This document shows, in pieces, positions 6,045 to 6,630 of a stretch of 64,000 bases of DNA (position 1 is its first letter; every line of letters starts with the position of its first letter). Below the pieces are notes generated by a model. That model had not been told where the DNA came from and made no database searches. It worked only from the letters and a program-made list of their open reading frames with translations. This DNA is from Eledone cirrhosa (lineage: Eukaryota): NCBI GenBank assembly GCA_964016885.1, contig OZ024751.1, positions 12,958,001-13,022,000 of the forward strand. The letters are read 5' to 3'. The translations under genes were made by a program, and so were the position numbers.

Positions 6045-6047
<3 letters not shown>

Positions 6048-6474
6048 AATGTATACGTACATACATATATGTATACAGACGTACAGTAGTATGTATATAT
6101 ATATACATACATGCACACACATATATATATATGTACGTATGGGTTTACCGAACATTTATTATAATGTTCGGTTTGTTTGTAAACAAACAGCCCGAATTAA
6201 GCCGTACGGTGTTTAGCAACCATCGTTGCCCTTTTGTTCAACACTGGCAAAGGAACGATGAACTAGTTTCTAGCTCATTAGCTGTCATCGTCACCGTATA
6301 CCTTCCTGTCAGTCGATTGAACGTTTGAAAGTATAAATTTCCTTATGCATATAAACGGCTGAGCAGCCCAATTTGCATATCGGGTGAGTTAGTCGGCCGG
6401 GCGTACCGAAAACGATAAATGTAAAAAATGAAATTTAATTTCTCACTCTTAGTAAATGTTCGGTAAACCCTTAC

Positions 6475-6509
<35 letters not shown>

Positions 6510-6630
6510 TGTATATACATATATACATACTACTGTACGGCTGTATACATATATGTATGTACGTATACATACATACATTTAAGTATCAGCCGTACTAAGA
6601 GTGAGAAATGTAATTTCGTTTTTCCATTTA
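6045..6630 (-). mobile_element. HHR-containing non-coding element (retrozyme-like), permuted copy plus inverted arm
   Basis: 6050-6410 aligns to 52040-52398; 6414-6453 aligns to 51972-52015; 6454-6630 is an inverted partial copy; (TA)n flanks. Confidence 0.75.
6255..6297 (-). ncRNA. Degenerate type I hammerhead ribozyme
   Basis: ACGGTG-ACGATGA-CAGC..GCTA-GAAA-CTAG-TT-CATCGT; core mutated relative to the 52241 copy. Confidence 0.55.

Follow-up and report, generated by a model that had tools for sequence, protein, structure and literature searches.

Two loci in a 64-kb window of the Eledone cirrhosa genome, the window being the whole 64,000-nucleotide stretch analysed, carry copies of a short unit that we call U. 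We put at about 0.6 the probability that U is a ~430-nt non-autonomous Penelope-like element (PLE) of the non-LTR retrozyme type and that its template RNA was continuous both across the ribozyme cut site and across the junction between unit end and unit start, as in a circle or an uncleaved multimer. The family offers two testable handles, namely rotated insertions of roughly one lap and a terminal motif that names a candidate helper; in other respects U is an ordinary decaying repeat amid the many PLE hammerhead fragments of the window.

A non-coding unit present as a monomer and as a rotated copy

We defined U from its 52-kb copy and number it along the minus strand from U1. The 6-kb locus consists of a left arm, in which the unit is rotated, and an inverted right arm:

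51972-52398, minus strand: near-exact monomer of U, 427 nt, 36% GC, no ORF, (TA)n on both sides
6045-6411, minus strand: main part of the left arm, U1 to about U366, 90.7% identical to the 52-kb copy, its 3' end merging into (TA)n without the last ~60 nt of the unit
6412-6414, minus strand: the three bases CGT that join unit end to unit start, placed by alignment to a doubled U
6415-6454, minus strand: rotated piece, the last 40 nt of the unit (U383-427), lying upstream of the unit start as a partial tandem
6455-6631, plus strand: right arm, inverted and 5'-truncated, about U256-427 by alignment, ending in TTTCCATTTAT and then (TA)n

The description of 51972-52398 as a non-coding unit of ~430 nt, made in an earlier note on this DNA, holds, as the longest stop-free frame in all six frames of the doubled unit is 72 codons. 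A search with nhmmer using the non-repetitive 272 nt of U found two loci in the 64-kb window, at 6 kb and 52 kb, and no complete dimer or multimer. BLAST aligned 52028-52398 with 6037-6411 (the 90.7% identity, over 376 columns) and 51950-52147 with 6654-6450 in inverted orientation (82.9%). All flanks of the U copies are (TA)n; the TSD expected of a retrozyme, when present, exceeds 4 bp.

Aligned to a doubled U, the minus strand of 6025-6460 is 89.4% identical over 424 columns: it begins at U383, crosses the end/start junction and reaches about U366-371. Along 6454-6045, 40 nt of the unit end thus come first, CGT next, and U1 to about U366 last. Against U, the rotated 40-nt piece has a score of 57, a value reached in 0 of 2000 shuffles (maximum 34). 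The circular permutation that the earlier note saw at 6045-6454 is thus confirmed, as is its second inverted arm. Its statement that the end of the 52-kb unit runs straight into the start is right about the adjacency, but the two are joined through the three extra bases CGT (6414-6412), which are missing from the 52-kb copy. Taken together, the two loci give the cyclic order end, start, end, so that the repeat closes at about 430 nt.

Where the right and left arms meet, they overlap by 2 nt (6453-6454), and the 3' ends of both arms face outward into (TA)n. The arms have variants in common that are absent from the 52-kb copy, which is consistent with a single insertion event at 6 kb. These shared variants also bear on whether the rotated piece could be a later DNA rearrangement, through hairpin or microhomology repair in the inverted locus, or an artefact of assembling (TA)n-rich sequence. 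The region is of low complexity and the piece forms an inverted repeat with the end of the right arm, as such an origin would have it. However, the identity between them is only 87.5%, so the piece is neither a collapsed copy nor a recent one; its junction falls precisely on the first base of U, and variants common to both arms are what one insertion should produce. We regard a rearrangement or artefact as very improbable.

The hammerhead ribozyme of the unit

Hammerheads were called by a descriptor scan with shuffled controls. The window contains six type I hammerheads with an exact core, compared with one hit in 20 block-shuffled windows, and eight when up to one core mismatch is allowed; at two core mismatches, chance yields about two hits per window. 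The counterparts in the two copies of U are:

52241-52283, minus strand: type I hammerhead with an exact core, predicted cut 3' of 52247 (descriptor scan and fold)
6255-6297, minus strand: broken type I hammerhead, core changes C3A and U4C, C-A mismatch closing helix II, would-be cut 3' of 6261 (found only at two core mismatches)

The 52-kb hammerhead has a helix I of 6 bp, a helix II of 4 bp and a 1-bp helix III whose loop, CUAG, is palindromic. The earlier note had called it intact; this is correct for the core, but a U-U mismatch forms the closing pair at the base of helix II, helix III is a single base pair and Rfam gives no match. No Rfam hammerhead family was found at this motif even at E<=10, nor at a second hammerhead region that was scanned, and the ribozyme calls thus rest on the descriptor scan and its shuffled controls. 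Rfam returned 938 matches for the whole window, and the 150 listed, which lie mostly on (TA)n, are miRNA-family models that fall short of their gathering scores.

Judged by its predicted helices, the 52-kb hammerhead is of the canonical retrozyme shape and not of the minimal PLE form. The canonical hammerhead of tandem repeats is described as having a helix I of 6 bp, a helix II of 4 bp, a helix III of 1-2 bp and a palindromic loop, whereas the minimal PLE hammerhead has a helix II of 7-8 bp and a short helix I (PMC4209133). The other seven hammerheads of the window have longer helix II regions than that of U. Axolotl retrozymes are reported with either a 1-bp helix III or a U-U at the base of helix II, and their dimers cleave better (PMC7229834).

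The 6-kb counterpart did not hold up as a ribozyme. Its core reads ACGATGA in place of CUGANGA, and it should be inactive. Seven of the 28 substitutions between the copies fall within the 43-nt hammerhead, compared with a rate of 6.5% elsewhere (P about 0.02). If the hammerhead stands out at all, it is by an excess of substitutions, and these copies therefore give no sign of selection for catalysis.

Predicted folding of the unit RNA

The stem of helix I continues into a longer domain:

52222-52308, minus strand: extended helix I domain (U91-177), about 24 bp with internal loops, fold z -2.8

When the unit is rotated to run from cut to cut, 24 MFE pairs form between its first 30 nt and its last 70 nt. 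Among 43 sampled rotations, 24 pairs are found only at position 150, beside the cut, and no more than 19 elsewhere. In this predicted structure the extended helix I would clamp both ends of a cut monomer, an arrangement suited to ligation. The end-to-end distance of the cut rotation is 4, a short distance that is not unique to that rotation.

The predicted circle is 67% paired, with z -7.7 for the sense strand relative to 60 dinucleotide shuffles and z -5.5 for the antisense strand, and the core alone folds at z -3.5 on both strands. The values for the antisense strand and for the core indicate that the folding signal comes in part from palindromic TA-rich sequence. Within the monomer the pair probability of helix I is 0.07-0.33, and to adopt the active ribozyme fold the RNA must climb 2.9 kcal/mol from its minimum. 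A comparison of two sequences showed compensatory change on both sides at 0 of 76 predicted pairs. The CATCGTT..AACGATG hairpin listed in the earlier note has a pair probability of 0.0 in the sense strand because helix I competes with it, and this value rules it out as a switch.

A 3' terminus shared with a PLE family

The end of U resembles the ends of one of the hammerhead-bearing PLE families of the window, family B:

51972-52016, minus strand: 3' terminal segment of U, like the family B 3' end (post-cleavage stretch plus TTTCCATTTAT), a candidate RT recognition or initiation signal
18107-18495, no strand assigned: family B fold-back with hammerheads at 18207 (minus) and 18300 (plus) and a one-sided tail, a candidate helper family (scan and inverted repeats)

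The 11-mer TTTCCATTTAT occurs exactly eight times on the two strands of the window, compared with a mean of 0.22 and a maximum of 3 in 200 shuffles. All eight sites are accounted for, two at ends of U and six at ends of family B. The similarity extends beyond the 11-mer, as the last 40 nt of U match all four family B ends tested (0-6 of 2000 shuffles) and none of the three ends of other families. When matches across the window are ranked, the four best non-self matches are B ends, and the fifth is equalled by two non-B windows. In B, the aligned stretch begins just past the cleavage site and extends to the first 3' end. Further B copies lie near 18970-19340, 38081-38239 and 48024-48165.

The presence of TTTCCATTTAT at both sets of ends nominates family B as the helper, and the RT/GIY-YIG protein of that family would most likely be the enzyme involved; within the window, family B is represented by short 3' fragments that lack an ORF. 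A few bases past the shared motif, family B ends also read CGT, like the U junction. This resemblance, noticed after the fact, is modest evidence that the junction CGT of U may be templated. The U terminus can be traced to a co-resident PLE family, in contrast to the metazoan retrozymes of a 2020 review, which are described there as showing no motif that points to a helper (PMC7761336).

The neighbouring coding PLE remnant

The 52-kb copy of U has a coding PLE as its neighbour, beginning 18 bp away on the opposite strand:

52417-54855, plus strand: coding PLE remnant with the C-terminal part of the RT, a Cys-rich linker and GIY-YIG, its own hammerhead at 54754 and its own inverted tail arm at 52417-52505

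The remnant contains broken ORFs at 52468-53595 (plus strand), with a GIY-YIG match below the Pfam cut-off and 1927 relatives of the GIY-YIG part at E<=0.001. Both ORF parts match one 884-aa protein in the same order. Pfam gave no confirmation of an RT domain when four long relatives of the remnant were examined; we take the RT label from the domain order and the PLE motifs. The 5' stretch of the remnant, 52431-52505, is 85% identical to the inverse of 56681-56755, the tail that follows the end of the same family. Hammerhead and terminus of the remnant differ from those of U. Both arms of the remnant are thus accounted for without U, which excludes the candidate assignment of U as an inverted arm of this element. 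On these sequence features the remnant is an insertion separate from U.

These observations are relevant to the possibility that U is the pseudo-LTR, that is, the 3' end, of a longer coding PLE and that both loci are 5'-truncated fragments of it. Truncated PLE ends with hammerheads abound in the window, the coding remnant is close to the 52-kb copy and the U terminus is common to family B, all of which would fit. However, two independent truncations at the same base would be needed, with the element's own end lying ahead of one of them, and the ribozyme of U, with its 4-bp helix II and its 6-bp helix I plus extension, is not of the minimal pLTR type. U is also not collinear with an RT/GIY-YIG ORF, the adjacent remnant being self-contained and on the other strand, with its own hammerhead, terminus and inverted tail arm. 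The earlier note had set this as the test of its proposal, and because the joining of end to start makes a closed repeat of about 430 nt and the coding PLE is separate, a pseudo-LTR is disfavoured; we consider it improbable.

The template RNA

The two long copies of U are 427 nt and about 410 nt long, or 0.95-0.99 of a unit, and both cross the cut site at U152 while their end points differ. The crossing indicates that the template was not the cut linear monomer, and points to uncleaved or re-ligated RNA. The earlier note had proposed a circular or multimeric template. The crossing of the cut site by both long copies supports it in part, but a partial tandem with an inverted arm is normal for PLEs (PMC8557442), and an identical junction would arise from a linear unit-length RNA if the template were switched once. 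A circle explains both near-unit lengths and both rotations without an extra step; a multimer, or a unit-length RNA with one jump, also explains them. A circle specifically is therefore a tentative choice, somewhat short of an even chance. Later slippage into (TA)n may have removed the last 60 nt of the left arm, in which case the argument from a length of about one unit would fall.

The junction could also reflect a linear, SINE-like non-autonomous PLE. A unit-length RNA from U1 with an internal start would then have been the template, the 6-kb junction would be an RT template jump at insertion, the hammerhead would be a passenger and a circle would not be needed. The 5' end of the 52-kb copy does coincide with the junction and the ribozyme has decayed. 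Moreover, partial tandems are reported as the rule for PLEs, hammerhead-less clades included (PMC8557442), and PLE insertion in vitro is not weakened by hammerhead mutations (PMC11167929). The canonical ribozyme with its long, end-clamping helix I argues against this origin, as does the resemblance of the junction CGT to the family B continuation, which suggests that the junction was templated. A scan of U with what we take to be consensus patterns for the Pol III A and B boxes gave only matches with one mismatch, so exact boxes are absent, and there is no tRNA gene in the window; U also lacks these marks of a tRNA-derived SINE. We judge the linear origin unlikely.

With a template continuous across cut and junction, the preferred reading, both loci could arise as follows. 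Head-to-tail copies of U elsewhere in the genome would be transcribed, and the hammerhead, probably as a dimer formed through the palindromic helix III, would cut out monomers. The monomer ends, held by the long helix I, would be ligatable into circles. The shared 3' segment would be recognised by the RT/GIY-YIG protein of a PLE, most likely of family B, which would nick (TA)n on both strands and prime cDNA internally on an RNA that is continuous across the cut and the end/start junction. Single priming would give the 52-kb monomer, and priming on both strands the 6-kb pair of outward-facing arms, of which the left would run 40 nt through the junction before it joins the right. The multimeric source loci, cleavage, circularisation and choice of helper are all predictions of this scheme.

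A more specific version holds that both loci are footprints of a PLE RT copying a ribozyme-made circle, one lap each from different starts, and that the retrozyme captured the RT-recognition segment of family B. We find this version doubtful; if true, it would name a retrozyme-helper pair and make circRNA-templated retrotransposition testable. Reverse transcription of retrozyme circles by PLE enzymes is put forward as a hypothesis in the sources that discuss it (PMC7229834, PMC4209133).

Relation to known elements

The earlier note had taken the unit to be retrozyme-like and mobilised by PLE enzymes. The canonical hammerhead, lack of an ORF, 36% GC, head-to-tail junction, PLE anatomy and shared terminus all agree with this, and on such sequence grounds U can be classed as a non-LTR retrozyme and non-autonomous PLE, with ribozyme cleavage and a circRNA as predictions.

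Like the metazoan non-LTR retrozymes described from coral, mussel and axolotl (PMC7229834), U is a non-coding unit of a few hundred nt with a GC content below 50%, a canonical type I hammerhead (in the 52-kb copy), a self-paired predicted circle and a head-to-tail junction. Helix III of U is like that of axolotl HHR_Amex1, and the U-U of helix II like that of HHR_Amex2, a cleaving axolotl retrozyme (PMC7229834). At 427-430 nt, U is at or slightly above the range given there for retrozyme RNAs (170-400 nt, with repeats of 150-450 bp). Unlike those retrozymes, it forms a two-armed inverted insertion in (TA)n and has no full tandem in the window: where retrozyme tandems comprise at least two intact units of 150-450 bp, the 64 kb hold one head-to-tail junction and no full dimer.

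Retrozyme monomers, dimers and multimers are reported by Li, Clavereau and Pollet (bioRxiv 10.64898/2026.07.22.740005) in a sample of 31 vertebrates, 3 insects and 1 anthozoan, and 24 of their 57 Xenopus retrozyme families are homologous to known elements, nearly all of them PLE pLTRs. In their account the PLE origin is supported by homology and the mechanism is still to be elucidated. U points to the same conclusion, that retrozymes are non-autonomous PLEs. We found no analysis there of rotated monomers or of insertion anatomy. Its term 'active' applies to two consecutive intact units, which U does not have in the window. In the literature covered, we found no report of a cephalopod retrozyme, of the U family or of rotated retrozyme monomers; supplementary files or repeat libraries may already catalogue U.

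On the PLE side, Craig et al. 2021 (PMC8557442) describe EN+ PLE insertions as a partial tandem with an adjacent inverted 5'-truncated copy, a one-sided tail and a (TA)n bias. The 6-kb locus has exactly this anatomy, with a partial tandem, an inverted 5'-truncated arm and a one-sided tail of about 60 nt, in a microsatellite; apart from the unusual shortness of its unit, it is thus a standard product of PLE insertion. The offset between its 3' ends is about 60 nt, compared with 30-40 in the PLEs of that study (PMC8557442), and U differs from those elements in being non-coding and in having a canonical rather than minimal hammerhead. The same source reports Chlamys non-autonomous head-to-tail elements that share 3' ends with autonomous families, and U likewise shares its 3' end with a PLE family, B, of the same genome. 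For the Anolis Poseidon PLE in vitro, Frangieh et al. 2024 (PMC11167929) report that both strands are cut and extended at AT-rich DNA, that there are two internal RT starts and that uncleaved RNA is the dominant template. This behaviour accounts for two arms of U that have different 3' ends and cross the cut site. Poseidon differs in being autonomous and in having an RT start without homology to the target (PMC11167929), whereas both ends of U are AT-rich and merge with (TA)n.

Other insertions and repeats in the window

The window is AT-rich, and 38% of it is masked as low complexity, mostly (TA)n. It contains 13 inverted pairs of less than 700 nt, of which 12 have (TA)n no more than 130 nt away on one side or both, in a setting where the density of (TA)n is high. 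One of the 13 consists of two SINE copies. Several fold-backs bear hammerheads, and just one of their two arms carries a tail.

Another seven type I hammerheads are of the PLE kind and belong to three families; they lie at 16647-16690 (minus strand), 18149-18358, 19016-19289, 38130-38188 and 54754-54817. The pairs at 18 and 19 kb are on opposite strands of fold-backs, and the palindrome at 18118-18389 is 100% perfect. The short arm of a family E fold-back (16773-16805) starts a few bases before the predicted hammerhead cut, as if from nearly cleaved RNA. Family D comprises GC-rich fold-backs in (TA)n with a one-sided tail and no hammerhead in the retained part (16924-17110, 47799-47977, 48359-48500, 60996-61098, 63386-63588, 51714-51745 and 23420-23463).

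The one-sided tails of four PLE-type families are 85-100 nt long, which exceeds the 30-40 bp reported for PLE tails. They have in common a motif of ACTC (or a close variant), 14-24 nt and GAGTRCT, found at 18395-18490, 56672-56768, 52417-52512 (minus strand), 16826-16930, about 270-365 (minus strand), 17045-17120, 47790-47870 (minus strand), 48430-48510, 61030-61110, 63525-63600 and about 1004 (minus strand). Four PLE tails that were folded had no significant structure (z -0.3 to -1.0), and the motif is possibly a conserved protein-binding or RT-start signal.

A SINE-like element at 23492-23926 forms a head-to-head fold-back with 90% identical arms in (TA)n, and has a second copy at 61288-61483. 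Its head is tRNA-like, with sequence that looks like A and B boxes; ARAGORN called no tRNA gene in the window, this element included. As it has the anatomy of a PLE insertion, it could have been mobilised by a PLE. This fold-back and family D end in TCGTTCCT before (TA)n (near 23930 and 47985), and ATCGTTCCTTT, just past the cut site of U (52237-52247, minus strand), resembles these 3' ends, perhaps by chance. An abundant SINE-like repeat of ~190 nt often occurs in head-to-tail arrays of 3-4 (17356-17960, 46018-46822 and 58315-59123), with about 15 dispersed copies.

Just to the left of the 6-kb insertion, 4442-5896 (minus strand) contains a 484-codon Thr-rich, mucin-like open frame that may be an exon or a simple repeat. 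LINE sequence is represented by 56831-57292 (minus strand), which we take to be a LINE-like tail, by a remnant at 14717-15112 (minus strand) with a weak RVT_1 match, and by a remnant at 40601-41569 (plus strand) with 28 relatives at E<=1e-30, including Octopus bimaculoides (54%) and Hydractinia (48%).
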